Positions 1-44,645 of a DNA stretch of 64,000 nt are shown piece by piece. The stretch's first letter is position 1; the number at the start of each line of letters is the position of its first letter. The position numbers and the translations under genes were made by a program. The stretch lies in assembly GCA_959600635.1 (NCBI GenBank), contig CAUGMN010000004.1, positions 990-64,989 on the forward strand. The letters are read 5' to 3'. Below the pieces are notes generated by a model, which did no database searches, was not told the origin of the DNA, and was given only the letters and a program-made list of their open reading frames with translations. This stretch comes from an uncultured Eubacteriales bacterium. Its GTDB lineage: Bacteria; Bacillota; Clostridia; Oscillospirales; QAMX01.

Positions 1-137
1 AAATATCTCTGGATAAAATACCTTCTGAGGAGCTGGATTGATTCAGGTCTGACGGACACATAAAAAAGAATATAGTGTAGAATTGTTTTGAATTAGACGG
101 CCTTGCTCCGGATTTCGTAAGGAGTAAGGCCATTTTT

Positions 138-427
138 TATGAGGCGAGTGGCTTCGTGGCGGAATCAAGGACAGATTTTGACCCGAAACAGGCGCCGAAG
201 GGATGGGATTATGAGAAACAGGGAAAACCGGATATCCTGTTCTGGCGATACGCGGGAGAAGAGGCGGCGCAGGCGGCAAAACCAACGGATGTAGAAAGCT
301 TGTGGAAGAGTAACTACGAGGTAGCCGAGGAATGGCGTGACACGGAGATCAGGAAGGCGGAGGAGGAGAACGCGAACAAAACGGTAGAGGAAGAAAAACA
401 ACCGACAAACGAACATATGGTTGACAA
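138..427 (+). repeat. Direct repeat copy 1 (~290 bp), partner at 1459..1748
   Basis: Hand alignment at a constant offset of 1321 nt. There is a long identical run from about 166 to 323 and only a handful of mismatches elsewhere. It covers the N-terminal coding part of ORF 156..857. Confidence 0.9.
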
Positions 428-857
428 GAATGGTATAATGAAAGAGGATAGTACGAATGCGAAACAACAAAATGGTAGTCATGAACAAGAGGAGAAAAGA
501 AGAGATGATGAAAACATTGTAAAATTTCACAGAGTGGCCTCAGATACTCCAACTAGTGTTGAATGGAAGACCCATGATTATATTCTTAATAACGAACACC
601 CTGTTGGAAAAAGTAAGGCAGAATGGTTTGAACGGGCATTAGGAATTTCAAGAAAAAATGCAGAAGTTCTCAACCGTCAGGTGATCTTTGATGCTGATAA
701 GGCTATAAAGACAGCGGAGACAGAATATGGGATAAAATATAATCAAATAACTACCATTGTAGGAGCTAATGGTAGGAAAATTGATGTGATCGTTGTATGG
801 ATTAAAAACAATGACGGCGTTGTACGTCTTGTAACAATTATACCCAAAAAGAAATAA
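156..857 (+). CDS. Protein with a charged E/K-rich N-terminal half and a DUF6883-like C-terminal domain (toxin-module-like); start uncertain
   Basis: The C-terminal ~95 aa (DYILNNEHPVGKSKAEWFERALGI...YGIKYNQITTIVGANGRKIDVIVVWIKNNDGVVRLVTIIP) fits the pattern I recall for Pfam DUF6883 (HPxGxxKAxxF..LG...YG.ry...G..G....v..WI......rLvT..P). The frame is open back to 81 with no in-frame ATG. An AGGAG-like motif lies at ~119-124. Confidence 0.6.
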   Translation: MAESRTDFDPKQAPKGWDYEKQGKPDILFWRYAGEEAAQAAKPTDVESLWKSNYEVAEEWRDTEIRKAEEENANKTVEEEKQPTNEHMVDKNGIMKEDSTNAKQQNGSHEQEEKRRDDENIVKFHRVASDTPTSVEWKTHDYILNNEHPVGKSKAEWFERALGISRKNAEVLNRQVIFDADKAIKTAETEYGIKYNQITTIVGANGRKIDVIVVWIKNNDGVVRLVTIIPKKK

Positions 858-869
858 GGAGGTATTAGC

Positions 870-1058
870 ATGTTCGATGAATATGATTTGGTCATAGCCG
901 AGCGTGATTTGTCCAAAAACGTTAAAAAAGGTTGTGTAGGAACGATCCTGATTGTGTTCAGTGAACCGTCAATAGCATATGAAATTGAATTTATAGCTGA
1001 GAACGGGGATACATTAGATGTTCTTACAGTCTATCCTAATGATATTAAGGAAAAATAG
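870..1058 (+). CDS. DUF4926-like small protein (62 aa), candidate partner/immunity of the upstream gene
   Basis: ATG preceded by AAGGAGG, 12 nt after the upstream stop. The sequence MFDEYDLVIAERDL..KKGCVGTILIVF...AYEIEFIAENGDTLDVLTV fits the DUF4926 pattern (D.V.l..dl....l.kG.vGtIv.v....ayEvEF....G.t). Confidence 0.6.
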   Translation: MFDEYDLVIAERDLSKNVKKGCVGTILIVFSEPSIAYEIEFIAENGDTLDVLTVYPNDIKEK

Positions 1059-1211
1059 CAAGATAGAAGAAGATGGATTGTTCGACGGAGCAAAAATGGA
1101 GAGACTTCGTACTTATTTAGGTAGAAGAAAGATGGGGAATAGATTGTATGAATGGGAATGTATGTAATAAAAGTTAGATTGAAAATTTGATTTGAGAACA
1201 AATATAGAGGA

Positions 1212-1241
1212 AGCAGACGCTTTTCAAGCGTCTGCTTTTTT
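1212..1241 (+). terminator. Rho-independent terminator after the two-gene cassette
   Basis: AGCAGACGCTT / AAGCGTCTGCT 11-bp stem with a 3-nt loop, followed by a T-run. Confidence 0.8.
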
Positions 1242-1404
1242 ATCTGTTAGAGAGTGTCGTGGTTATTAAGATGAATGAGGACGTGGCTAATTAATAATTG
1301 GAAAAATATTATAAAAGAGCAGAGTCTCGATCAGAAAAACGGACGGAGAGATCGGGTCGTGGTTCAGTGAGAGAGGGAAAGAGCTGGAAACCCTGAACGA
1401 GGCG

Positions 1405-1770
1405 GTGAGACTGGGAGGAAAGAAGCTCGCCGACTACGACGGGGAGAGAAACCGCTTCTACGAGGCGAGCGGATTTGTGGCGGAGTCAAGGACAGATTTT
1501 GACCCGAAACAGGCGCCGAAGGGATGGGATTATGAGAAACAGGGAAAACCGGATATCCTGTTCTGGCGATACGCGGGAGAAGAGGCGGCGCAGGCGGCAA
1601 AACCAACGGATGTAGAAAGCTTGTGGAAGAGTAACTACGAGGTAGCGGAGGAATGGCGTGATACAGAGATCAGGAAGGCGGAGGAGGAGAACGCGAACAA
1701 GACGGTAGAGGAAGAAAAACAACCGACAAACGAACATATGGTTGACAAAGGAGCAATTAAACCGCTGTGA
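1405..1770 (+). pseudogene. Truncated paralog of the N-terminal half of ORF 156..857 (no C-terminal domain)
   Basis: Shares the FYEASGFVAESRTDFDPKQ...NEHMVDK segment almost identically. It then ends after 7 more codons (GAIKPL*) inside a hairpin. The frame is open from 1315 without an ATG; only a GTG at 1405. Confidence 0.45.
1459..1748 (+). repeat. Direct repeat copy 2 (~290 bp), partner at 138..427
   Basis: Same hand alignment as for copy 1. Confidence 0.9.
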
Positions 1771-1798
1771 AATGATTCATATCATTTCACAGCGGTTT
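1759..1798. terminator. Perfect 17-bp inverted repeat between convergent genes (bidirectional terminator candidate)
   Basis: AAACCGCTGTGAAATGA ttcata TCATTTCACAGCGGTTT. The stop codon of ORF 1405..1770 lies inside the stem. Confidence 0.7.
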
Positions 1799-1856
1799 GA
1801 TTGGATGCGAGCCGCTTATATTACGAAGAGTTTTGGGGGGATGGAAAAGCGAAGCA

Positions 1857-4055
1857 CTACGCCTTGACCGGCGTTTTTTCGGCGTCGGCCATTTTTGTCG
1901 TCTGACGCTGCGCCATGACCAGACGGTAATACACGCCCTTTTTCTCCAACAGCTCGTCGTGCGAGCCCATTTCCGCGACCTTGCCCTTGTCAATACAGAG
2001 AAGCTTGGTCGCATGGCGCAGAGTCGAGAGCCGGTGGGCGATGGCAAAGGTGGTGCGTCCCTTGATCAGCCGTTCGAGAGCCTCCTGAATCAGATGCTCG
2101 GTCTCGGTGTCGAGCGAGGCGGTGGCTTCGTCGAGGATCAAAATCGTCGGGTTGCGCAGCACGGCGCGGGCAATGGCGATGCGCTGGCGTTCGCCGCCCG
2201 ACATCGTAAAGCCGTTTTCACCGATCTTGGTGTTGTAGCCGTCGGGCAGCTTAATGATAAACTCATGGGCGTTGGCAATTTTCGTGGCGGCAAAAATCTC
2301 TTCTGGCAGCGCGTCCGGCTTGGCATAGGCGATGTTGTCGTAAATCGTCCCCGCAAAGAGGAACGTCTCCTGAAACACAATGCCGATATTCTCGCGCAGC
2401 GTCTGCTGCGGAAGGTCGCGGATATCCGTGCCGTCGATGAGAATCCGGCCGCCGGTTACGTCATAGAAACGCATGATCAGGTTGATGAGCGTCGACTTTC
2501 CGACGCCGGACGGCCCGACGACGCCGACCATCTCGCCGGGCTGGATATCAAAGCTGATGCCTTTGATAACCGGTTCATAGCTGTTGTAACCGAAGAAAAC
2601 ATCTTCAAAACGGATATGGCCGCGAATGTCGACGATCTCCGCGTTTTCTTTATCCTCGACGTCCTGCTGTTCGTCAAAGACTTCGAAGAGCTTTGCGGAG
2701 GAAGTAAAGAACGAGGTGAGCTGCTGCGGCAGCAGCGTCAGAGAGTTGAGCGGGGCGTAGATATAGCCGAGGAAAGAGGTGAACTGGATCAGCTCGCCGA
2801 CGCTCATCTGGCCGCCGATGACGTTTTGGCCGCCGAAGTAGAGGATGATAAACTCGCCGAAACCCATGACGAAACCGAGAATCGGCCCCAGCGTCGCCCA
2901 GAGTTTTTCGTTGGAAATCGTGACGTCGGAGAGCTTGCGGGAGACTTTCTCATACTTTTCTACTTCGAGCTTTTCGGTGCCGAAGCTTTTGACGACGCGG
3001 ATGCCGCGGATGATGTCGTAGAGGATGGAGTTGGAACGCGACGACCAGCGCCACAGGCTCTCATATTTGAGGTTAATGACACGGCGGTACATGACGATGC
3101 ACAGCGCAACGAACGGAACGGGAAGAAACGCCCAGAGCGTCAGACGCCAGTTGACGATAAACATGATGACCGTGACAACGATCAGCGAGGTGAGTTGCAG
3201 CAGGACCGTTTGCAGCGTACCGGTGATAAAGCCCTGCACGGTCGCGGTGTCGCTGGTGATACGGCGCATGAGGTCGCCCGGCGTACGCTTGGAGATCGAG
3301 TTGACGCTCATCGCCTGAATTTTGGAATACGCCATGATTCGCAGGTCGTTGGAGAACGAGTTACCGACGCGGACGCTGCGGCGGTTGGCGTAAATGGAGA
3401 TAAAGGTGCTGAAAATGTGGCAGGCAAATATGGCGGCGACGAGCAGGAGCGCTTCATGGAGCGGGCCGCGCTGCGGCGCCAGATAATCGTCTATCAGGAC
3501 ACGGTTGATGATCGGCATGGCAATCGAAATGGCGCTGGAAAGCACATAGAGCGAGATGACGAGAATCATCGTCGGCAGATACGGCCGCAGCGTTTTGAGC
3601 ATCTTGCCGAAAACAGAGCCTTTTTTAGCGCAGAACGGGCAGATGTTCGAGCCGCGGATCAACTGCCGGCCGCACTTGAAGCAGATGCGCTCGTCGTCGT
3701 CGCTGTCCTCGATCCATGTGTTGTGTTCGTTTTTGATACGGACGGCGCGCGCCAGCTCGGCAAAGCGCTCGGAATGCTTCCTGGAAAAACGCGCGATCAG
3801 ATACGGCTCGCCGCCGTCGATCTCCGCGACAAACTCCGCGCAGCCGACGCCCAGATGGATGGTCAGCTCGCTGAGCTTGGCGACGTCGACGCGCTGCAAC
3901 AGCGTTTCTCCCGCGTAAGTCAGGATGTCGTTTCCGACAACGGCGACGACGCCGTCGCAGGGCGCGCCGTCGAAGTCCATATCGCAGGGGATACAGTATA
4001 CGGCGTCTGCGAGGATGGCCTTCAAAGTTTCCGGCGGATCAAATTTCAGTCTCAT
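1857..4055 (-). CDS. ABC exporter, fused permease/ATPase, with an N-terminal cytoplasmic domain ending in a zinc ribbon
   Basis: Walker A GPSGVGKST, signature MSGGERQRIAIARA, Walker B ILILDEATASLD. Six-TM exporter-type region. CFKCGRQLIRGSNICPFC lies just before TM1. Confidence 0.85.
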   Translation of the reverse strand: MRLKFDPPETLKAILADAVYCIPCDMDFDGAPCDGVVAVVGNDILTYAGETLLQRVDVAKLSELTIHLGVGCAEFVAEIDGGEPYLIARFSRKHSERFAELARAVRIKNEHNTWIEDSDDDERICFKCGRQLIRGSNICPFCAKKGSVFGKMLKTLRPYLPTMILVISLYVLSSAISIAMPIINRVLIDDYLAPQRGPLHEALLLVAAIFACHIFSTFISIYANRRSVRVGNSFSNDLRIMAYSKIQAMSVNSISKRTPGDLMRRITSDTATVQGFITGTLQTVLLQLTSLIVVTVIMFIVNWRLTLWAFLPVPFVALCIVMYRRVINLKYESLWRWSSRSNSILYDIIRGIRVVKSFGTEKLEVEKYEKVSRKLSDVTISNEKLWATLGPILGFVMGFGEFIILYFGGQNVIGGQMSVGELIQFTSFLGYIYAPLNSLTLLPQQLTSFFTSSAKLFEVFDEQQDVEDKENAEIVDIRGHIRFEDVFFGYNSYEPVIKGISFDIQPGEMVGVVGPSGVGKSTLINLIMRFYDVTGGRILIDGTDIRDLPQQTLRENIGIVFQETFLFAGTIYDNIAYAKPDALPEEIFAATKIANAHEFIIKLPDGYNTKIGENGFTMSGGERQRIAIARAVLRNPTILILDEATASLDTETEHLIQEALERLIKGRTTFAIAHRLSTLRHATKLLCIDKGKVAEMGSHDELLEKKGVYYRLVMAQRQTTKMADAEKTPVKA

Positions 4056-4098
4056 AGAGCAAAATCCCTTTTTCGTCTAATTTGTCGCGCACAGCCAC

Positions 4099-4620
4099 TT
4101 ACAGCAGATACGGCTCGATGCGCTTAAAATCCTTGTCCGGCATCTTGGAGACATCCGGGATCTCATAGCGGTTGCCGTCGACGTCGATGATGATGATGCG
4201 CGCGCCGTCGTCCAAACGGCGGAGGTTATGCGTCGCGTCCCGCAGCGCAAAGGATTTGTGTCCCGCGTCCGTCTCCACCTCAAAGTAGAGATAACCGAGT
4301 TTTTCCTTGACAGAGGGGATTTTGGAGATCTTCGGGCAGAAATAGCGCTTTTTCAGCACGGCGGCGAGCACCCCGATCTGCTCGTCGCTGAACTCGTACA
4401 GCGAATGGATGAGGAACAGTTCCTTTGATTCCATATCCTGCACGGAAATGTAGTCGTCGGGCAGCTTAAACGGCATGGCGCGATGCAGTTTCAAATTTTC
4501 ATACGTCTCTCCGTCGTAATCCAGACAGAGAAAGTTTTCGTATTTGATATAAAACCTCGCTTTGGCGGGATCGAGATAATTGACGCCGGCGAGCCGTTCG
4601 AGTGAAACCTTTCTTTCCAT
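4099..4620 (-). CDS. DUF1854-like protein encoded between the two ABC genes
   Basis: GGAGG RBS before the ATG. The 173-aa soluble protein ends DVDGNRYEIPDVSKMPDKDFKRIEPYL, which fits my recollection of DUF1854, a family typically linked to ABC exporter pairs. Confidence 0.6.
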   Translation of the reverse strand: MERKVSLERLAGVNYLDPAKARFYIKYENFLCLDYDGETYENLKLHRAMPFKLPDDYISVQDMESKELFLIHSLYEFSDEQIGVLAAVLKKRYFCPKISKIPSVKEKLGYLYFEVETDAGHKSFALRDATHNLRRLDDGARIIIIDVDGNRYEIPDVSKMPDKDFKRIEPYLL

Positions 4621-4665
4621 AAAACAAAACCTCCGTAGATGAGCTGAACCGCGTTCCGCCGAGTC

Positions 4666-6987
4666 TCAGCTGTTGGTTCCGATGAATTTGAGCGCCTCCA
4701 TTTGGAGGTCGTAGAGCTTTTTATAGGTGCCGCCCTCGAGGTTGATCAGCTCGGCGTGGGTGCCAAACTCGACGACGCGGCCCTTATCGATGACGGCTAA
4801 GACGTCGGCGTCGCGCAGAGTCGAGAGCCGGTGGGCGATGGCGATGGTCGTGCGCCCTTTTTGCAACTCGGTCAGAGAGTTTTGGATATTGCGCTCGGTT
4901 TCCGTATCCATAGCCGCGGTGGCCTCGTCGAGAATCAGAATCGACGGGTTCTGGATGATCGCGCGCGCGATGGAAAGGCGCTGCCGCTCGCCGCCGGAAA
5001 GCCCTTGGCCGCCGGCGCCGACGCGCGTCTCATAGCCGTCGGGCAGCTTGATGATGAAGTCGTGCGCGCAGGCGGCGCGCGCGGCGGTGATGACCTCTTC
5101 AAGCGTCGCGTCCGGACGCGCATAGCGGATGTTGTCGGCGATGGAACCGATAAAGAGGTAGATATCCTGAGAGACGATGCCGATGTTGCGGCGCAGATCG
5201 CCCACGAAGATGTCCTTGATATTGTGGCCGTCGAGCGTAATCGTCCCCTCGTTGGGGTCGTAGAGGCGCGCGAGGAGGTTGACGAGCGTCGATTTGCCCG
5301 CGCCGGTTTTGCCGACGATGCCGAGCATCTGCCCGCCCTTGACCGAAAGCGTCAGATTGCGGACGACAGGACGGCCGGGCTCATACTCGAACAGCACGCC
5401 GTCGGCCTCAAAGTCGCCCTTGATCGTGTCGAGGCGGACGGGATTTTCCGCGTCGGGCAGGTCGGACTTGGCGTCGATGACCTCGAAAATACGCTGAGCC
5501 GAATCGACGCAGCTCGACCACCAGTTGGAGAGGTTGGTAAAGAAGCCGAGCGGCTCAAAGAGCATGTTGAGGTAAGCCGTCAGCGTCATCAGGATACCGA
5601 CGCTCATTTCACCGCGCAGAACAAGGATCGTCCCCGCGCCGAAGAGCACCATATGCGCCGTGCGCATGATCAGGCCGACGAGCGGGTAGGCCGTATTCTG
5701 CGTCAGACCGAGGCGGGTATGAGAGGTGTTGACGCGCTGGCTGTACGAGGAGAAACGGGTGTTTTCCGCATCCTCCTGCGTGAAAGCCTTGATGACGCGC
5801 TGGCCGTAGAGCGCGTCGGATAAAAGCGCGTGCATCCGCGAGCCGTAGACCCAGTTGGCGTGATACATGCCGCGCACGGCGCGCATGATCAGCACATAGC
5901 CGGTTACGATCAGCGGCACGGCCGCGAACACGATCAGCGTCAGCTTCCAGTTGATGACAAACATCAGCGACAGAACGCCCGTAAACGTGAGCACCGAGGT
6001 GAACAGATAGGGAATGCCGTTGATCAGGAAGTTATAGACGTTGTTGGCGTCGTCGTTGACGCGCGACATCAGCGAGCCCGTCTGCTTTGAGGTGTAGAAG
6101 CCGACGCTGAGCCGCTGCATGGCGGAAAAAATCATCAGCTTCATGTCGTAGACGACCTTGGGGACCGTTCCGGCGATGTAGCGGGAGCGCAGGATTCCAA
6201 GCACGTTTTGCAACACGCGGACAACGATCAGCCCGAGAACGACGAGGCCGATTTCATGGAACAGGTCGATGCCGAAATAGAAGGTGTCGGCCGCGCCGGA
6301 GGCGTGCAGCTCCTTGTCGACGAGCACCTTGTCGTAGATCAGCGCCGTGGAGAAATACGGGCTGAGAATGGTAAAGCCGGTCGTCAGCGCCAGAAAAAGC
6401 AGGATCATCAGCACCTGCGGGATATATCTTTTGAAAAGGCTGAGCAGCCGGAAGGTCAGCGACGATTTCGAGAGGCATTTGGGGCAGACCTTGCGCGCCG
6501 GGTTGGGGTAGCGCGTACCGCATTTCGGACAGAACAGCTCCGGCTCCTCGCCGATGGGGCCGTCGTCTTTTTCCTCGATATGACTGGTGGCGCGGTTGAA
6601 GTTTTTGGCGAAAATCTCAAAGGCGGCGCTGCGCCCGATGGCGAAATCGCAGATTTCTTCCAGCGTGCCGTCGTCGCCCTCGGAGACGAGGCGCGCCGTG
6701 GCGATCATCTGGTCGACGTCTAAATGGCCGAGAGTGGAGAGCAGCCGCTCCGAGAAGTCCGAGACGTCGAAAACCGTTTCGAGCCGTTTCTCCTTTTCGA
6801 CGCGGATGACGTGTTCAAGGCCGGTCATGATGTAGAATTTCTGATCGTCAAAGGCGACGACCTGATCGGTAAAGCACTGTTCGAGATCCATATCGCCCTT
6901 GACATAACGCACGATTTTGTCCGTATCGACGCCGCGCTCGGCAAAACGGAGCGCGATATGGGCGGGAAGTTTGTTGTAGGTTTTCAA
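4666..6987 (-). CDS. ABC exporter, fused permease/ATPase, with an N-terminal cytoplasmic domain ending in a zinc ribbon
   Basis: Walker A GKTGAGKST, signature LSGGERQRLSIARA, Walker B ILILDEATAAMD. CPKCGTRYPNPARKVCPKC lies before TM1. I place the start at TTG 6985-6987 (MKTYNKL...), 7 nt after AAGAGGTGG, rather than at the upstream ATG of the ORF track. Confidence 0.8.
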   Translation of the reverse strand: MKTYNKLPAHIALRFAERGVDTDKIVRYVKGDMDLEQCFTDQVVAFDDQKFYIMTGLEHVIRVEKEKRLETVFDVSDFSERLLSTLGHLDVDQMIATARLVSEGDDGTLEEICDFAIGRSAAFEIFAKNFNRATSHIEEKDDGPIGEEPELFCPKCGTRYPNPARKVCPKCLSKSSLTFRLLSLFKRYIPQVLMILLFLALTTGFTILSPYFSTALIYDKVLVDKELHASGAADTFYFGIDLFHEIGLVVLGLIVVRVLQNVLGILRSRYIAGTVPKVVYDMKLMIFSAMQRLSVGFYTSKQTGSLMSRVNDDANNVYNFLINGIPYLFTSVLTFTGVLSLMFVINWKLTLIVFAAVPLIVTGYVLIMRAVRGMYHANWVYGSRMHALLSDALYGQRVIKAFTQEDAENTRFSSYSQRVNTSHTRLGLTQNTAYPLVGLIMRTAHMVLFGAGTILVLRGEMSVGILMTLTAYLNMLFEPLGFFTNLSNWWSSCVDSAQRIFEVIDAKSDLPDAENPVRLDTIKGDFEADGVLFEYEPGRPVVRNLTLSVKGGQMLGIVGKTGAGKSTLVNLLARLYDPNEGTITLDGHNIKDIFVGDLRRNIGIVSQDIYLFIGSIADNIRYARPDATLEEVITAARAACAHDFIIKLPDGYETRVGAGGQGLSGGERQRLSIARAIIQNPSILILDEATAAMDTETERNIQNSLTELQKGRTTIAIAHRLSTLRDADVLAVIDKGRVVEFGTHAELINLEGGTYKKLYDLQMEALKFIGTNS

Positions 6988-7254
6988 GTTTGAACCACCT
7001 CTTTGAATCAAAACAAAAAAGCCGCGGACACACATGTATCCACAGCTTGAAAACACACCGGCGCGTCAAAAAAAACCGCGGACGGAAGCGATCACAGCAG
7101 ATACAATGCCCCATATTGTATTCTGGGTTGTTTGTAATAAGCGATTAGGCTATGATTTACCTCCTGCGGGAAACGCGCTGCCGCACCGATTCTGAAAGCA
7201 CCGCGCGTCAGTCCTGCGGACGACAAAACCGATCCGCACGAAACGACTATGAGA

Positions 7255-7283
7255 ATTTTAATGCAAACGGACGCAAATGTCAA
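7255..7283 (-). promoter_or_regulatory. Sigma-A-type promoter candidate for the ABC operon
   Basis: On the minus strand: TTGACA, 17 nt, TAAAAT. It would give a ~260-nt leader. Confidence 0.5.
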
Positions 7284-7576
7284 GCGAATCCTGAAAAAAT
7301 ATAACCAAAAAAAGCCGGGATATTGGCCGCAGGCTTGTGAGGAAAATAAACAAAGCCCTGTTTTTGACGAAAAAACGGAAAAAACTCGGGGAATTGCCCT
7401 GTTTTTTTATGTGAAGCTGCGGCATAAAACTGGGCCGCTCTCATCCCTGCAATATCGGGAGAGAGTAAAAAGCGAGGCACAGACATCTGTCTGTGCCCCG
7501 GATGACGACGGCCGGGCCAAACCATTGGCGCGCCCGCCGGATGGAACCGATATCGGGTTCCGGAAGCGCGGGGAAG

Positions 7577-7996
7577 TCAGTCGATAACGATGTAGACGCC
7601 GAGCGTCCGGCGCGGATCCGGGCATTTTTCGTATCCGACGACGTCCCGTTCCCCACCGTCGGCGCGCTTGGTGCGGGGCAATTTTTGTTTTGGTAAAAAC
7701 TCGTCGCCCGCCTCATATTCGGCGAGATCAACGGCGCGCATGAGCAGCGTCCGCTTCATGTCCTCCGCGCTCTGCCAGCCGCCGTGCCAGACGATACCGT
7801 TTTTGGCGATCCGCCACACCCAAGCGGAAAGGCTGCGCGGCGTAGCGCCGCGGCTCAGCGACAGCAGAACCTCGTAGCTGATATCGCTTGTCAGCTCCTC
7901 GGCCTGCTGCTCGCCGCCTGTCTTGCGCAGACAAAAATAGAAGATCTTTTCCAGATGGTTTGCACAGAATTCCTCCGCGTATCGCATGCGCTTCAC
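7577..7996 (-). pseudogene. Sigma-70-family region-2-only fragment, paralogous to the N-terminus of 9547..11133
   Basis: HLEKIFYFCLRKTGGEQQAEELTSDISYEVLLSL...SLSAWVWRIAKN parallels FIEPIFCFCLKRVGNRADAEDLAGEIMLHILDG...SFEAWVWRIAHN. No region 4 / HTH follows, and the last ~70 aa look unlike any sigma factor. Confidence 0.4.
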
Positions 7997-8201
7997 CTCG
8001 CTTGTCCGTCTTCATTTATATAGTGAGCGGAACAGGGCGTTTGGATTTGAAGTTTTTTCAAAAATATCGAAAAAATATCCGGCCAGAGCGAAAGGGAAAA
8101 AATGAATTGACGAACGGCGGCCGGCGGGATATAATAATGATATACAGTGGCAACAGAATGAAAGCGAAACCTGAAATTTGACAAGGAGCAGGGCGGTTTT
8201 T

Positions 8202-9197
8202 ATGATTCGTGTCGGCATCATCGGACTGGGCGGGATCAGTCATGTACACAGAAAGTCGTATCGGCGGCTGATGGAAGAGGGGGCGGCGATTTCTTTGGAG
8301 GCGTTCTGCGACCTGCTGCCGGAGCGCACGGTGGATCTGGGCGGCCGCGCCTATACGGAAATCGAAACGTTTCTACGGGAGGAACGGGGGCGGCTCGATA
8401 TGGTCGACATCTGCCTCCCCACCTATCTGCACGCGGAGACGGCGGTCCGGGCGCTGGAAAGCGGCTTCCATGTGCTCGTAGAGAAGCCGATGGCGCTCAA
8501 TCATGCGGACGCGCTCAGAATGTGCCGCGCGGCGGAGCGGAGCGGCAAAACCCTGATGGTCGCGCAGTGCCTTCGCTTTTCACAGGAGATTGAGGCGGTT
8601 CGCCGTTATCTCGCCTCCGGCGTTTTCGGCGCGTTTAAAACAGCCGACGTCCGCCGCGATTTCGGGCGGCTGAACGTTCCGGAGGGTTATTGGTTTCTCA
8701 AAGAGGAGTGTTCCGGCGGCGCGCTGCTCGACGTCCATGTCCACGATATCGACTGGATGCAGTCGGTCTTCGGCGTCCCCGAAGCGCTGAGCACCGGCGC
8801 GAGCAAGGTGATCCCCGGAGACGGCTACGATATCGTCAGCACCAACTATTACTATAAAGGCGGGGCGTTCGCCCATTGCAGCGGCGAATGGACGACCGAT
8901 CACAACCCCTACGCCTCCGTTCAGCAGCTTGTCAAGTTTGAAAAGGGCTATCTGCTCCATACGAGCTTCGGAGGAGAGCGCGTTTTTCGGGCGGTCTCCG
9001 AAGACGGAACCGTGACCGAGCTCGCGCCGGAACAGCCCGTGGATATGTATTATGAGGAGATCCGGTATTTTACAGAGTGCGTCGCGGCCGGCCTGCCTGT
9101 GGCGCGCTGTACGCCGGAGAGCACGGCGGAATCCATCCGTATCGCCATGGCGGAAATCGCCAGCGCCGACGCAAAGGGCGAACGGATCGCGCTGTAA
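8202..9197 (+). CDS. Gfo/Idh/MocA-family NAD(P)-dependent oxidoreductase
   Basis: N-terminal Rossmann motif MIRVGIIGLGGISHVH and the EKP motif (VLVEKPMA). Start chosen at ATG 8202 after AAGGAG. Confidence 0.8.
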   Translation: MIRVGIIGLGGISHVHRKSYRRLMEEGAAISLEAFCDLLPERTVDLGGRAYTEIETFLREERGRLDMVDICLPTYLHAETAVRALESGFHVLVEKPMALNHADALRMCRAAERSGKTLMVAQCLRFSQEIEAVRRYLASGVFGAFKTADVRRDFGRLNVPEGYWFLKEECSGGALLDVHVHDIDWMQSVFGVPEALSTGASKVIPGDGYDIVSTNYYYKGGAFAHCSGEWTTDHNPYASVQQLVKFEKGYLLHTSFGGERVFRAVSEDGTVTELAPEQPVDMYYEEIRYFTECVAAGLPVARCTPESTAESIRIAMAEIASADAKGERIAL

Positions 9198-9303
9198 GAG
9201 AAACCGCTCCGGCGCAAAAAAGCGCAGGCGGAAAAGGCCGGTTCACCGTTTGCCGGAAGCGGAGCGCGCGGGGCAGACAGCGTATAGAAGGATAAAGACA
9301 ACT

Positions 9304-11415: not shown

Positions 11416-11491
11416 TGGCAGGGGCAGAAGGGATCGAACCCTCGGCCTACGGTTTTGGAGACCGCCGCTCTACCAGCTGAGCTATACCCCT
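11416..11491 (-). tRNA. tRNA-Trp: tRNA-Trp (anticodon CCA), 3' CCA encoded
   Basis: The reverse complement reads AGGGGTATAGCTCAGCTGGTAGAGCGGCGGTCTCCAAAACCGTAGGCCGAGGGTTCGATCCCTTCTGCCCCTGCCA. It has a 7-bp acceptor stem, D and T arms (GGTTCGATCC) and anticodon loop CTCCAAA. Confidence 0.93.
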
Positions 11492-39833: not shown

Positions 39834-42800
39834 ATGGCAAGAGACTATGAAACACGGATCGACGGAGAGATCATGAGCGTCGATTTTGCGGATTTAGAGG
39901 CGGCCGCGGCTGCCGGAGACGCGGAAGGCTTCCGCAATCAGGACTGGATGGTGACCGGCCCGTTCGTCGCGCGCACCGAAGGCGCGTTCGAAACCGAGTA
40001 TCTCTACGAGCGCGAGAAGATTTTACAGATCGACTATCTCGCCGCCGACGGCGGAGAGGCGGATGCTGCGCCTTACCTCGGTCTGCGCGGCCACAACGAA
40101 TACCTCGGCTGTGAGTCGCCCGTCTGGACAAAGGGCATCCGTAAGTGGAATATGCTCCGCTTCGACCCCGACGACGGCGATTCCGCCTGCGACGAGGCGC
40201 TTTATATGACCGAGCAGCGCAACTGCGTGTTCTACGCGGCGGTCTATGTGCGCTGCGCGGGCGCAAAGCGCGCCGTCGTCTGCTATGAAAACTCCGGCTG
40301 CCGGCTTTTCCTGAACGGCCGGCTGGTTTCCGATACGCCTTACGGCCGCGTCAAGGGCGTTCCCACGATGGGAAACTTAGTGCCGGTCACGTTTGAGGAC
40401 GGGCTGAATCTGCTGCTCTTCAAGCTGCGCCCCGGCTATATCTGCGATACGGTTGATCTGTCGATGACCAACTGCTCGATCTATCCGGTCGCCGCGCAGA
40501 GCGGCGCGCTCTGCTTGACCTATCCGGCGAGAACCGCGGTTTTTGTCAACCGCGGCAGTCAGCCCAAGCAGATCTTCCCGTGCTTTGCCGCGGCGTTTGC
40601 CGATCTTGCAGACGGGCGCGTGGAAATCGGTTCTGCGGACGGCGGCGTGCAGACCGTTGCGCTCGGCGCAATGCGCGCCGGGGAATGCCGGCTGGTCCGC
40701 GCCGAGATCGACGCGATAGCGGGCGAGACGCCGGCTGTTCCCGTCGCGGTGACGGCCGCGGGCAGCGCGCGCGGCGAAGGCTGCTTCCCCGTGCGGCCGA
40801 GCGCCGCTCCGGCCTTCACGGGCACGGAGCTGGCGATGACGAGCTTCCACTTCGACACGACCTACCATCAGGAGCAGCGCGTCTACGCCATGGGCGCGAT
40901 CTATATTCTGAAAGAAATCCTCCAAGAAATGCGCCGCGACGACCGCTTCAAGGCCATTATCTCCGAGGTGGATTATCTGCACCCGTATTACAGCATTTAT
41001 CCGGCCGACCGCGAATTTTTGAAGCAGAAATTTATCGACGGCCACGCCGAGTCGGACTGCTTCTACAACCAGCCCAATGAGATGACCTCCGCACCGGAGG
41101 GCATCGTGCGCAACCTCGTGTACGGGCAGCTCTACCACCGCGACGTGCTCGGGCGCATCTGCGACGTGTACAGCCCCGGCGACGTTTTCGGCCACTTCAA
41201 CCAGATGTCGCAGGTCTCGGCCAAGGGCGGCTGCGGCGGCATATACTGGGGCAAGCACATCTTCGGCTTCCTCCCCGCCTTCCGGCACGTTTCGCCCGAC
41301 GGCACGACGCTGATTCACCGCCGCGGCGGCATCGGCCGCGGCACCGCCGCCGAGTGGGATCTCTCTGTCTGCGAGGGCGACGGCTCGGCAATGTCGTATG
41401 TTCCGGGCTATCCGGTCGACGGCAGCTTGTCGTGGATGGACGAGACGACCCCGACGGCCAGATACGCGATCCCGAGCGAATACCGCCGCGCGCTCGAAGC
41501 GGACGAGGCGCGCATTACCGAGGGAGGCGGCCTGTCGCCGTTTGGCGCGACGAGCCGCGACATGTCTCTCTACCACGCCGGCGTCTCGCTGACGCGGACG
41601 GATTTCAAACAGGCCAACCGCATGGCCGAAAACCTGCTGATTACCGCCGAAAAGCTCTCTGTCCTCGCGGCGGTGAACGGCGCGGAGTATCCGGAGCGCG
41701 CGCTTGACAAGGCGTGGCGGCAGGTGCTCTGCGGCCAGCACCACGATTCGATCACCGGCACGAACAACGAGGTTTCGTTTGTCGATCTGATGATCCAGTA
41801 CCGCGAGGCCGTCGAGCTCGCCGCCGATATCTGCGACCGCGCGGCCGCGTATATCGCCTCGCACATCTGCACGGAGAACGGCCGCCGCGCCGTCGTTCTC
41901 TTCAACCCGCACGCGTGGGAGCGCACCGAGCATATCGAGCTGACCATAAAAACCGACAAGCCCTTCGCTCGCCTGCGCTTTACGGATACAAAGGGCGCGC
42001 CGGTTCCGGCGCAGCCCGTCAGAGAGGTGGAATGCGGCGGCGGCTTTGTGACCGAGCTGCTGCTCCGCGCCTCTGTTCCCGCCTGCGGCTATACGGTCTG
42101 TTATATCGACGAAAAGCCGACGCTTTCCCTGCCGGGCGCGCTGACGATGCCCGCAGGTCTGCCGGAGCGCGCGGAGGGCGCGGTGATCGAAAACGCGTTT
42201 TATAAAATCGCCGTCGATCCGGCGCAGGGCGGCGGTATCGTCTCGATTTACGATAAGGAGGCGAAGCGCGAATTGATCGACGCGGCCGGCGACGGCCCGG
42301 CCAACCGTCTCGTCGCGCTCAAAGAGACGCACGACCGCATGGAGACGCAGCACGAATTCTATACGACCGGCCACAAGCTCGCTTCGGACGGGGAACGCGC
42401 CGCCGTCGCATGCACGCGCTGCGCCGAATTTGAAACGCTGACAATTCGCTATGACCTCGGCAACGTCGTCCATGTGACGCAGGAGATCACGCTGCGGCGC
42501 GGCGACCGCCGCATCGATTTCAAGACGCGGCTCGACGACTACCGCGACGAGGACGATCTGATGACGCTGACCTTCCCGGTGCGCGTCAAGGGCGCCAAGC
42601 CCGTTTTTGACGACCGCTTCGCCCCGCAGGTGCGCACGTCTTCGCGGCGCGCCCTCTCGTTCCGCACCCACCAGTTCGCCATGGCCTCGCACTGCGCGGT
42701 CTACGCGGCGAACCAATGGCTGGACTACGGCCCGACTGTGACGGTCAGGCTCTCCGAGGGCTTCCGCTCCGGCTCCTTCCAGCTCGGCATGACCCAGCTC

Positions 42801-44645
42801 ATCCGCAGCGCCGACAAGCGGCTGGTTGAGCTCGGCGAGACGCTGCTGACAATACTGACGAAAAAGGCGATCCCCGTCACGCCGTTTGCGGACGGTCGCC
42901 AGCCGTGCACGGGTTCGCAGATCGTTCATTTCAACGAGGATCTCTATTCCGACACGCGCATTGTCCTCTGCGTCGACGGTCTTGAAAACGAATATGAAGC
43001 CAAGCTCGCCGAACGCTACTCCGCGCCGTACGCGCGGCTCTGCAAGGCGGCGGAGAAAAACGGCGCGGCGGTCATGTATGTGTGCGACGAGGATAACGAC
43101 TGGGGCAAGCCGGTCGACGTGCTGCTCGTCAAAGCGGCGACATACAAGGCGCTCGCGGCGTGGATCGATAACGTCGCGGCGGCGCTCGCCAAGGGAAGCG
43201 CGCTGACGTTTGAGGCGGTTCTGGCCGGAGAACTGGGCGAGGCGGACGATTACGGCGTCGCGCTCATCAACACCGGCAACATCGCGTGCAGCGTCGAAAA
43301 GGGCGGCATGCTCAACCTGATGCTGTTCCACACCGCGGAGTTTTACGGCAACGTCGGCAACGCGAACTGCGGCGCCAAGCTCGTTCCGGAGCGGAAATCG
43401 CATATCTTTACCTATTCGCTGCTCCCGCATCAGGGCAGCTACCGCGAGGCGCAGCTCTACCGCCGCGCCCTCGAAAAAAACGACCCGCTGTTTGCCGTCA
43501 CCGAATTCACCCGCGCGGCCGACGCAGCTCTGCCGGAATCGATGAGCCTTGTGAGCGCCGACGACAACGTGATCGTCACGGCGGTCAAGGCCGGCGGCTA
43601 TCCGTCCGCGTCGATGAAGGGCGTGCCGGGCGGTCTGCTCAAACGCGGCATCGCGCTCCGCTGTTTTGAACACAACGGCTTGGCCGCCGACGCGAAGATC
43701 CGCCTCGGCTTTGCGGCCGAGAGCGCGGCGCGCGGCAACCTGCTCGAAGAGGAGCTGACAGCGCTCGGCGTGGAGAACAACACGATCACGCTCCAAATGA
43801 CGCCGCACGATATCGAGACGGTCGTCATTGCGCCCGCTGCGGCCGCGGTCAGAGAAGGAAAGGCGCAGATCGGCGCGGCGGCGGAAATCACCGAGCCGAC
43901 CTATATCCGCTCGTGGGAGCACGACCTCGGCACCATGCCGATGGGCTATCTCTCGCTCTGCGCCGTCATCGGCCGCAATCCCAGACAGATTGACGAGCGG
44001 CGCTTTGAAATCGAGGTCTCCGTCGCCAACAACCACACCGATATGGAAGCCGGGGGCACGGCGCGGCTTCTTCTGCCGGCGGGCTGGACGGCCGACGCCG
44101 AGCGGATCGATTACAGCCTTGCGCCGGGCGCCTGCGCGGTCAGGCGCGTCACGGTCGAGAAGCCGTCGGCCGACGCCAAGGGCATTCTGCGCCTCGAATA
44201 CGGCCATCTCGGCCAGACCTTTGAGGATATCTTCGAGGTCGGCTATTTCAACCCCGACCTCAACGTCGAGATCGAGGGCGACGCCATCACCGTCACCGTC
44301 ATCAACGACACCGACGAGCTGCTGCGCGGCGAGCTCGCCATGGCCACGCCGGTCGAAACATGGGGCGGCCTCGGCGGCAAAAACCCGTTCGGCGCCGCTG
44401 AAATTTCACCGTATCAGCGGCCGGTGTCCGTGCCCGCGCACAGCCGCCGCGTGTATACATATACCTGCACGGGCGACGTCTCGCTCTCCTTCTGGGCGGT
44501 CGCCAAGCTGATGGTCAACGGGAGAATCTACTTCAAGGGCGTGCTGCACCGGCCGGTTCAGCCGCATGTGCTGTGGGCGCACACGTTTGTGGACGAGATC
44601 TACCGCGACGGCGGCTCGCTCAGAAAGCTGAACGCGCTGGAATAA
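39834..44645 (+). CDS. Very large (1603 aa) cytoplasmic GH38-like alpha-mannosidase-family protein
   Basis: QHHDSITGT motif near residue 635 and a GH38-like N-domain starting near residue 337 (FHFDTTYHQEQ). No signal peptide. Start could be at an internal ATG. Confidence 0.6.
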   Translation: MARDYETRIDGEIMSVDFADLEAAAAAGDAEGFRNQDWMVTGPFVARTEGAFETEYLYEREKILQIDYLAADGGEADAAPYLGLRGHNEYLGCESPVWTKGIRKWNMLRFDPDDGDSACDEALYMTEQRNCVFYAAVYVRCAGAKRAVVCYENSGCRLFLNGRLVSDTPYGRVKGVPTMGNLVPVTFEDGLNLLLFKLRPGYICDTVDLSMTNCSIYPVAAQSGALCLTYPARTAVFVNRGSQPKQIFPCFAAAFADLADGRVEIGSADGGVQTVALGAMRAGECRLVRAEIDAIAGETPAVPVAVTAAGSARGEGCFPVRPSAAPAFTGTELAMTSFHFDTTYHQEQRVYAMGAIYILKEILQEMRRDDRFKAIISEVDYLHPYYSIYPADREFLKQKFIDGHAESDCFYNQPNEMTSAPEGIVRNLVYGQLYHRDVLGRICDVYSPGDVFGHFNQMSQVSAKGGCGGIYWGKHIFGFLPAFRHVSPDGTTLIHRRGGIGRGTAAEWDLSVCEGDGSAMSYVPGYPVDGSLSWMDETTPTARYAIPSEYRRALEADEARITEGGGLSPFGATSRDMSLYHAGVSLTRTDFKQANRMAENLLITAEKLSVLAAVNGAEYPERALDKAWRQVLCGQHHDSITGTNNEVSFVDLMIQYREAVELAADICDRAAAYIASHICTENGRRAVVLFNPHAWERTEHIELTIKTDKPFARLRFTDTKGAPVPAQPVREVECGGGFVTELLLRASVPACGYTVCYIDEKPTLSLPGALTMPAGLPERAEGAVIENAFYKIAVDPAQGGGIVSIYDKEAKRELIDAAGDGPANRLVALKETHDRMETQHEFYTTGHKLASDGERAAVACTRCAEFETLTIRYDLGNVVHVTQEITLRRGDRRIDFKTRLDDYRDEDDLMTLTFPVRVKGAKPVFDDRFAPQVRTSSRRALSFRTHQFAMASHCAVYAANQWLDYGPTVTVRLSEGFRSGSFQLGMTQLIRSADKRLVELGETLLTILTKKAIPVTPFADGRQPCTGSQIVHFNEDLYSDTRIVLCVDGLENEYEAKLAERYSAPYARLCKAAEKNGAAVMYVCDEDNDWGKPVDVLLVKAATYKALAAWIDNVAAALAKGSALTFEAVLAGELGEADDYGVALINTGNIACSVEKGGMLNLMLFHTAEFYGNVGNANCGAKLVPERKSHIFTYSLLPHQGSYREAQLYRRALEKNDPLFAVTEFTRAADAALPESMSLVSADDNVIVTAVKAGGYPSASMKGVPGGLLKRGIALRCFEHNGLAADAKIRLGFAAESAARGNLLEEELTALGVENNTITLQMTPHDIETVVIAPAAAAVREGKAQIGAAAEITEPTYIRSWEHDLGTMPMGYLSLCAVIGRNPRQIDERRFEIEVSVANNHTDMEAGGTARLLLPAGWTADAERIDYSLAPGACAVRRVTVEKPSADAKGILRLEYGHLGQTFEDIFEVGYFNPDLNVEIEGDAITVTVINDTDELLRGELAMATPVETWGGLGGKNPFGAAEISPYQRPVSVPAHSRRVYTYTCTGDVSLSFWAVAKLMVNGRIYFKGVLHRPVQPHVLWAHTFVDEIYRDGGSLRKLNALE

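Follow-up and report, generated by a model that had tools for sequence, protein, structure and literature searches.

The 64,000 nucleotides (nt) analysed here, referred to as the window, belong to an uncultured Eubacteriales bacterium of the class Clostridia (GenBank assembly GCA_959600635.1, contig CAUGMN010000004.1, positions 990 to 64,989), and their left end, positions 81-1798, raises the question of what an AT-rich pair of small genes does between two near-identical direct repeats and to which larger system it belongs. A preliminary description made from the letters alone had assigned the pair to DUF6883 and DUF4926 and read it as an orphan toxin/immunity cassette with a constant homology segment, as in polymorphic toxin loci. 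With good confidence we conclude that the stretch is the last part of a polymorphic toxin island in a gut Clostridia bacterium, made up of one orphan toxin/immunity cassette and a terminal remnant that has no toxin; a cassette array on a related contig, a contig reaching further to the left and a comparison of strains all support the orphan-cassette reading. The cassette itself is unremarkable within a known type of system. For its carrier, which is not of the MuF type and is linked to phage head-region genes, no description was found in the libraries and papers searched. The features on which the argument draws are the following:

Positions 99 to 140, plus strand: intrinsic-terminator-like hairpin and T-run, with the stem at 99-109/121-131; copy 1 of the constant segment begins at the T-run.
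Positions 135 to 427, plus strand: copy 1 of the constant (pre-toxin) segment in a 5'-truncated form, encoding FYEASGF...NEHMVDK.
Positions 156 to 857, plus strand: orphan toxin open reading frame (ORF) of 233 amino acids (aa) from GTG 156, in a frame open from nt 81, consisting of constant segment, linker (NGIMKED...) and C-terminal DUF6883 domain.
Positions 567 to 851, plus strand: DUF6883 domain (BECR-Tox3), a predicted BECR-fold RNase, from Pfam, an AlphaFold model and Foldseek.
Positions 870 to 1058, plus strand: DUF4926 gene, 62 aa, the predicted cognate immunity protein, from Pfam and its invariable place 3' of the DUF6883 tail.
Positions 1211 to 1245, plus strand: terminator hairpin (1211-1237) and T-run that close the cassette, from folding.
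Positions 1342 to 1748, plus strand: copy 2 of the constant segment in the full 407-nt form, of which 1456-1748 is the part repeated in copy 1.
Positions 1405 to 1770, plus strand: terminal remnant ORF, 121 aa from GTG, consisting of constant segment and six codons (GAIKPL).
Positions 1754 to 1803, no strand assigned: 23-bp hairpin that marks the right-hand border of the island, with the remnant ORF on one side and a convergent ABC-transporter gene on the other.

The repeat had been placed at 138..427 and 1459..1748, about 290 bp each, and proves slightly longer: 135-427 and 1456-1748 form a direct repeat of 293 nt with 97% identity, in which the longest identical run, estimated earlier at roughly 158 bp, measures 161 nt (165-325). 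All ten mismatches between the copies fall on third codon positions and the encoded peptides are identical, in agreement with the preliminary description. As the synonymous share of random single changes in the repeat is 19%, the probability of ten synonymous changes in ten is about 7e-8, so the segment has diverged under selection for the encoded protein. The earlier hand counts of G+C (21 of 60 at 431-490 and 31 of 60 at 181-240) were exact, and the block 428-1264 as a whole has a G+C content of 35.8%, against 59.2% for window positions 2000-64000. Neither copy contains an in-frame ATG, as had been noted; the first possible starts are GTG 156 and GTG 1405. Behind copy 2 the remnant ORF, which holds no toxin domain, continues for six codons (within seven, according to the earlier reading) to a stop at 1768-1770 in the 5' arm of the hairpin at 1754-1803, and the perfect 17-bp hairpin first described there is the core of a 23-bp stem (folding window 1745-1815: -36 kcal/mol, z -8.2). 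An exact protein look-up of the 121-aa remnant gave no record; its GAIKPL ending is found again in L002, L006, L029 and L031-L036 (L numbers denote related contigs).

The constant segment occurs two to three times per contig in many independent metagenome assemblies. Most related contigs begin or end within it, which means that assemblies evidently break on the repeat. Three other accounts of the repeat were considered and rejected, namely an assembly artefact, because the same structure is present in many independent assemblies; the attachment site of an integrated element, because the roughly 1 kb between the copies holds no integrase; and an RNA element, because Rfam gave no match in positions 1-2000.

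If the two copies are orphan modules, a larger gene carrying the same segment should lie to the left of the window, as the preliminary description had expected, and such a gene is present on related contigs. L009, which is 100% identical over window positions 1-1396 and reaches 989 nt further left, carries a third copy of the constant segment with a different tail of 153 aa, followed by a 118-aa gene and by the terminator at window positions 99-131. This hairpin (folding window 92-145: -21.5 kcal/mol, z -4.0) therefore marks the end of the preceding cassette, and the 118-aa gene of that cassette is situated just beyond the left end of the window. On L001, where the head of the locus is seen, genes for a 786-aa protein, a 129-aa protein and a 1039-aa protein come first; the last of these proteins includes the constant segment within its reading frame (...GSWFSERGKELETLNEAVRLGGKKLADYDGERNRFYEASGF...NEHMVDK) and has a 185-aa tail behind it; then come a 69-aa gene, an Endonuclea_NS_2 gene with its partner gene, a DUF6883/DUF4926 cassette whose toxin ORF has 257 aa and the longer form of the constant segment, and a further orphan, of 316 aa, with a DUF7957 gene after it. 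Full-length toxin genes with the segment in frame (969-1039 aa) are present in L001, L003 and L012. They share one layout, in which a conserved N-terminal carrier is followed by a constant segment of about 135 aa, with NEHMVDK as its end, and then by a C-terminal toxin domain that varies. Copy 1 of the window is 94-96% identical to the same segment in the main toxin gene of these three contigs, and window positions 1342-1748 match three places in L001 at 96-97%, the main gene among them. A scan of species-representative genomes for the constant segment returned one contig, L011 (NWBO01000169.1, 2332 nt), also with the 185-aa tail; it is binned as 'Bacteroidales bacterium Phil12' and is probably mis-binned, because the context everywhere else is of the Clostridia type.

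The arrays also contain stand-alone Endonuclea_NS_2 (PF13930) genes that lack the constant segment (L001:7556-8567 and L002:2264-3267). Their products have 174-181 aa and a Cys-rich N-terminus, they are accompanied by a weakly YezG-like partner gene, and they would constitute a second cassette class that could not be swapped through the constant-segment repeat.

In order to describe what follows the constant segment, we gathered all reading frames running across the junction NEHMVDK; these gave at least 12 unrelated tails, joined to the junction through two types of linker (NGIMKE... and KPKSDIIKEEK...). Pfam matches identify DUF6883, barnase (PF00545, followed by Barstar, PF01337) and TNT (PF14021, followed by an Imm59-like gene); the tail of protein P0028 is by inspection an Endonuclea_NS_2-type nuclease, another tail is a widespread 116-aa toxin domain that elsewhere sits on an RHS protein, and several tails have no Pfam match. 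A DUF7957 gene stands 3' of the 184-aa tail T3, and every cassette seen whole has a small downstream gene.

The preliminary description had also proposed to compare related strains for presence, absence or replacement of the cassette, and such differences are observed. L002 matches the window at 98.6% over 346-1748 and at 99.2% over 1342-5000, and it carries two cassettes that are absent from the window and sit exactly between two copies of the constant segment, while L006 has the window's arrangement at 99.8%. The comparison also used contigs that encode an identical 732-aa ABC-transporter protein (window 1857-4055, minus strand). Beside this identical gene stand different elements, namely the GAIKPL remnant, a TNT cassette followed by the remnant, or a barnase/Barstar cassette followed by a fragment of the gene for a 508-aa partner protein of the toxins, which is taken up below. 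In L028 and L030 the partner-gene fragment has 118 aa and lies between the Barstar gene and the right-edge hairpin, and in L037:5619-6575 (minus strand) a truncated and frameshifted partner gene directly adjoins both hairpin and ABC gene, and no toxin cassette intervenes. The hairpin is retained even where strains have another last cassette. Cassettes are gained, lost and replaced within borders set by the constant segment, and since the last cassettes differ among strains with an identical ABC protein, the DUF6883 cassette is not an invariant part of the locus.

By analogy with what is established for Rhs, CDI and MafB loci, the constant segment would serve as a substrate for homologous recombination of the RecA type, which would delete, duplicate or move cassettes and could place an orphan tail together with its immunity gene onto an expressed full-length gene. 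A strong ribosome-binding site of its own would allow DUF4926 to shield the cell from the same toxin when relatives deliver it.

The same evidence has to be weighed against the view that the cassette is a decaying leftover of recombination, unexpressed and unselected, which serves neither as a reservoir nor for protection. The missing ATG start speaks for decay, as do the truncation of the constant segment to 293 nt directly behind a terminator, the loss of the whole toxin domain next to the neighbouring copy 2 and the presence of a single weak promoter-like site in positions 1-2000. Debris of this kind would hardly be expected to keep both ORFs intact, and an exact look-up finds the identical DUF4926 protein on 22 metagenome contigs (among the ten listed, those identifiable by name are from the human gut) and the identical 233-aa product is called on six of the contigs read. 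Strains hardly differ in the DUF6883 tail, every difference in the constant segment is synonymous and the immunity gene retains a consensus AGGAGG. On balance we regard decay as improbable and return to the orphan-cassette reading.

What, then, do the two proteins do? Both family assignments of the preliminary description lie well above the Pfam cut-offs: DUF6883 is matched with E 7.9e-15 and 55.5 bits (cut-off 27) over residues 163-257 of the frame opened at nt 81, and DUF4926, the sole Pfam match in the 62-aa protein, with E 1.2e-12 and 47.5 bits (cut-off 29.1). The tight coupling of the two genes and the terminator behind them are likewise as described: the toxin stop TAA (855-857) is followed directly by AGGAGG (858-863) and by the DUF4926 ATG at 870, 12 nt from the stop, and the hairpin at 1211-1237 folds with -22.6 kcal/mol and z -5.9 (folding window 1200-1250). 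In every contig that reaches past the toxin domain DUF4926 lies 3' of DUF6883, including L023, where another N-terminus precedes a DUF6883 domain of 82% identity. Searches of NCBIfam, PHROGs and PADLOC yielded no useful match for the proteins of the cassette.

In the preliminary description neither family had an assigned function. This no longer holds for DUF6883, which has been classified as the BECR ribonuclease family BECR-Tox3, with DUF4926 conserved downstream and frequent fusion to Phage_Mu_F (preprint 10.64898/2026.08.28.747851). A protein search with the DUF6883 domain gave two relatives, and the structure model accordingly has a shallow alignment behind it; AlphaFold2 nevertheless models the last 115 residues with a mean pLDDT of 85.8 as three helices followed by a four-stranded sheet. 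Foldseek against the PDB returned CdiA-CT of Klebsiella pneumoniae 342 (6cp9; E 2.4e-4, TM-score 0.65) as the single significant family, and CdiA-CT of E. coli 3006 (6cp8) came second; both toxins are BECR-fold tRNases that cleave tRNA-Ile(GAU). Sequence searches of the PDB gave one spurious match to a PAS domain, and among predicted viral structures the best matches were a phage zinc metallopeptidase and two 'minor capsid proteins' (E 8e-7 to 2e-5).

The three DUF6883 sequences agree without exception at K163, Y167 and H173, which belong to the helices, and at the two named residues of R249-x-x-T252, which belong to the final strand (codons at nt 567, 579, 597, 825 and 834, numbering from the frame opened at nt 81). 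H173 and T252 fall in the expected structural elements of the model, the invariance being that of a shallow alignment of three sequences. The active site of 6cp9 consists of K157, Y160, H170, R252 and T255 (PMC9086364). From model and sequence pattern together, DUF6883 is predicted to be a metal-independent BECR-fold RNase, probably a tRNase, that would act through His173 and Arg249-x-x-Thr252, and DUF4926 would bind and block it. The likeness to 6cp9 and 6cp8, which are the best structural matches, extends to the order of helices and four-stranded sheet and to the pattern of K, Y, H and R-x-x-T; the two differ from DUF6883 in that identity is 18-20% with no match at the sequence level, and in that their immunity protein is unrelated to the small all-beta DUF4926.

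RNases of the BECR/RelE type are common as type II toxins, and the pair is compact, closely coupled and of horizontal origin (36% G+C), which could also describe a self-contained toxin-antitoxin or abortive-infection module next to which the repeat is incidental. We consider this very improbable. The toxin domain forms a single reading frame with the pre-toxin segment of a protein of about 1000 aa, the toxin gene comes first, Pfam detects DUF4926 and no DNA-binding antitoxin domain in the 62-aa protein, and the pair has no match among 5027 defence-system models (PADLOC). Moreover, it keeps company in the arrays with barnase/Barstar, TNT and nuclease cassettes that use the same junction.

Given an orphan toxin/immunity cassette at the end of an island, the remaining question is what carries the toxins. 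The full-length toxins of 786 aa and 1039 aa have no Pfam domain at all. About 57 residues at their N-termini are common to both and include a doubled motif ITDEDRxxVARN (L001:933-1100 and 4135-4305) that could be a packaging or partner-binding signal; a homologue encoded in a prophage shows the corresponding MRITDADRRNV...VTADDRAAV (L021:11526-11640). In an exhaustive phmmer search, carrier residues 300-750 proved related to the N-terminal regions of giant proteins (1700-2800 aa); a Zeta-toxin domain is present in one of these, and metallopeptidase modules also occur among them. A search of family libraries and papers found no description of the carrier, within the limits of the literature search.

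Left of the toxin genes lies the gene for the partner protein, 508-512 aa, which has many homologues, one of them labelled Caudoviricetes. In L017, L019 and L021 the partner homologue is encoded 3' of the capsid gene. The genes of L017, the phage genome with this label, run in the order terminase, capsid, 114-aa gene, partner homologue, a gene for an LPD38 (Pfam) protein of 2006 aa and integrase, and residues 193-640 of the carrier align with 187-640 of the LPD38 protein (E 4e-20). L021, a prophage in a Ruminococcaceae metagenome-assembled genome, has portal and capsid genes, then the partner homologue and next a 1117-aa protein that starts with the motif MRITDADRRNV, continues with a central region related to the carrier (E 2e-14) and an HExxH motif, and ends in Endonuclea_NS_2. 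Behind this protein comes an array of nuclease and SUKH-type immunity cassettes, and in one of the cassettes a stretch of 300 nt from the main gene recurs at 98%. Hence the design seen in the window, orphans that share a repeated segment, exists in apparently complete prophages. In two further prophages of this type, L019 (10001-12418) and L020, the partner gene and a SUKH-family immunity gene are kept and the large toxin gene between them is absent.

The carrier types that the preliminary description had offered as examples, LXG, Rhs and CDI, do not apply, as the carrier has no Pfam domain and is related to phage polyvalent proteins. A secreted effector system of such a classical route (type VII secretion system (T7SS)/LXG, Rhs or CDI) would explain the architecture of orphan cassettes with a common constant segment, which is the same. 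The full-length toxins, however, match neither LXG nor WXG100, RHS, haemagglutinin-repeat or any other Pfam domain, and the 10 kb to their left contain no WXG100 or T7SS genes. RHS_repeat is readily detected in P0023, an unrelated RHS protein that has one toxin domain in common with the locus, and not in the full-length toxins, and for CDI there is no TPS domain in Pfam, no haemagglutinin repeat, no VENN junction and no cdiB in the same 10 kb. With a carrier homologous to phage proteins instead, we give a classical route hardly any credence.

The locus has a non-MuF carrier family with a conserved partner gene and orphan arrays, which in the window's species is detached from a prophage. Carrier and partner may go back to phage proteins whose genes directly follow that of the capsid; conceivably, phage particles take up the toxins and eject them into target cells. 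Homology and gene order point weakly in this direction. The island could be the remainder of a prophage, could work with particles encoded elsewhere or could use another route. Our most far-reaching suggestion, that a module from beside the phage head genes, perhaps an ejection-type pair of the 508-aa partner and a carrier with the doubled motif, became a chromosomal polymorphic-toxin system with recombining orphan cassettes in gut Oscillospiraceae, delivering its toxins by the particles of helper prophages or by a new route and distinct from MuF toxins, tailocins and the type VI secretion system, is offered tentatively and is, in our estimation, rather unlikely to be correct.

Several observations weigh against parts of this interpretation. 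The orphan toxin ORF starts with a GTG whose ribosome-binding site is weak, just behind a terminator, so that it may be silent. DUF6883 tails were found in orphan position, as ORFs of 233 or 257 aa, and never on a full-length gene, which leaves a swap into an expressed site undocumented for the DUF6883 cassette. The correspondence with the catalytic residues of 6cp9 is one of sequence pattern (K, Y, H, R-x-x-T), without residue-level structural alignment. The model of DUF4926 is poor (single-sequence prediction, pLDDT 61.8, small and all-beta) and was not used for a fold search, so the immunity role rests on position and co-occurrence. A literature search found no toxicity, binding or RNase assay, the one paper naming DUF6883 being a computational classification. 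With regard to the phage link, the window's species has no head genes adjacent to the island: left of the partner gene (L016) are a trypsin-like protein, small secreted proteins and metabolic enzymes, and the right neighbours are ABC-transporter genes. A tblastn search of the central carrier region against 50,697 GenBank phage records and the PLSDB plasmids gave no hit, and neither did an IMG/VR scan for the 1039-aa toxin. A word-indexed protein search with the 1039-aa toxin, in which low-complexity Q/E-rich words filled the candidates, returned two proteins, and a JGI metagenome scan with the partner protein returned three short contigs.

The right border of the island is formed by two ABC exporters of 732 and 796 aa (ABC_membrane and ABC_tran) flanking a 173-aa DUF1854 gene (window 1857-7056, minus strand), a set that is conserved at this border in all strains examined. 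Between these ABC genes and a GFO_IDH_MocA gene, at window positions of about 7100-9200, lies a Sigma70_r2-like gene that is called with 136, 306, 309 or 540 aa in otherwise nearly identical strains (L028:4859-6481, L029:6069-6479, L032:3702-4622 and L034:3422-4351), which suggests frameshifts or phase-like length variation. Elsewhere in the window, tRNA-Trp (CCA) at 11416-11491 (minus strand) is the only RNA gene found by Rfam or ARAGORN in the 64 kb, and the product of a 1603-aa ORF at 39834-44645 (plus strand) has no exact entry in the protein collection, unlike most window proteins tried. Window proteins fall into clusters at 90% identity in which the named members are from metagenome-assembled genomes labelled as Clostridiales, Ruminococcaceae or Oscillospiraceae bacterium.

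Polymorphic toxins shape the coexistence of strains in the gut, and almost nothing is known of such weapons in the abundant and mostly uncultured Oscillospiraceae. The locus holds a rich repertoire of RNase, NADase-type and DNase domains on a carrier that no domain library recognises, and the DUF6883/DUF4926 pair offers a concrete and cheap test case with predicted catalytic residues.

Arrays of orphan toxin/immunity pairs are reportedly known from Rhs, CDI (cdiA-CT/cdiI), MafB and LXG loci. As in those arrays, a full-length gene is followed by 5'-truncated toxin fragments that each have an immunity gene, homology ends at a sharp junction (NEHMVDK here, VENN or PxxxxDPxGL there) and cassette content varies between strains; the differences are that the carrier is unrelated and that the host belongs to the Gram-positive-type Clostridia. 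LPD38 polyvalent proteins (PMC5512222) resemble the carrier in its N-terminal region, which aligns with that of the 2006-aa protein encoded after capsid and partner genes. The homologues in L017 and L021 are large multidomain proteins among virion genes, with which the window's locus shares the N-terminal module only; its proteins have no LPD38 match in Pfam, are not encoded beside virion genes and combine a single toxin domain with a dedicated downstream gene and orphan spares, an arrangement typical of polymorphic toxins and not of polyvalent proteins. The MuF toxins (PMC5576092) share with the locus the linkage to phage genes, since relatives of carrier and partner occur in the head-gene region of gut Firmicutes prophages, as well as variable C-terminal toxin domains followed by small immunity genes and a proposed delivery together with phage DNA. 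Also in common is DUF6883 itself, which is often fused to Phage_Mu_F and whose model matches phage 'minor capsid' proteins. Unlike MuF toxins, the carrier lacks a Phage_Mu_F domain in Pfam and has no MuF family among its PHROG matches, a conserved 508-aa partner gene goes with it, the locus lies apart from head genes in the window's species, and orphan arrays share a constant segment of 293-407 nt, the word 'orphan' being absent from PMC5576092. What the locus has in common with polymorphic toxins in general is a conserved region joined to at least 12 alternative C-terminal tails, a small gene directly 3' of the toxin domain in each cassette seen whole (DUF4926, Barstar, Imm59-like or DUF7957), orphans that share a segment with the full-length gene and a cassette content that varies between strains. 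Through the homology of its carrier and its gene-order tie to the prophage head region it extends phage-borne polymorphic toxins beyond MuF, and it indicates that phage-linked toxin loci can hold orphan arrays like those of Rhs and CDI loci.

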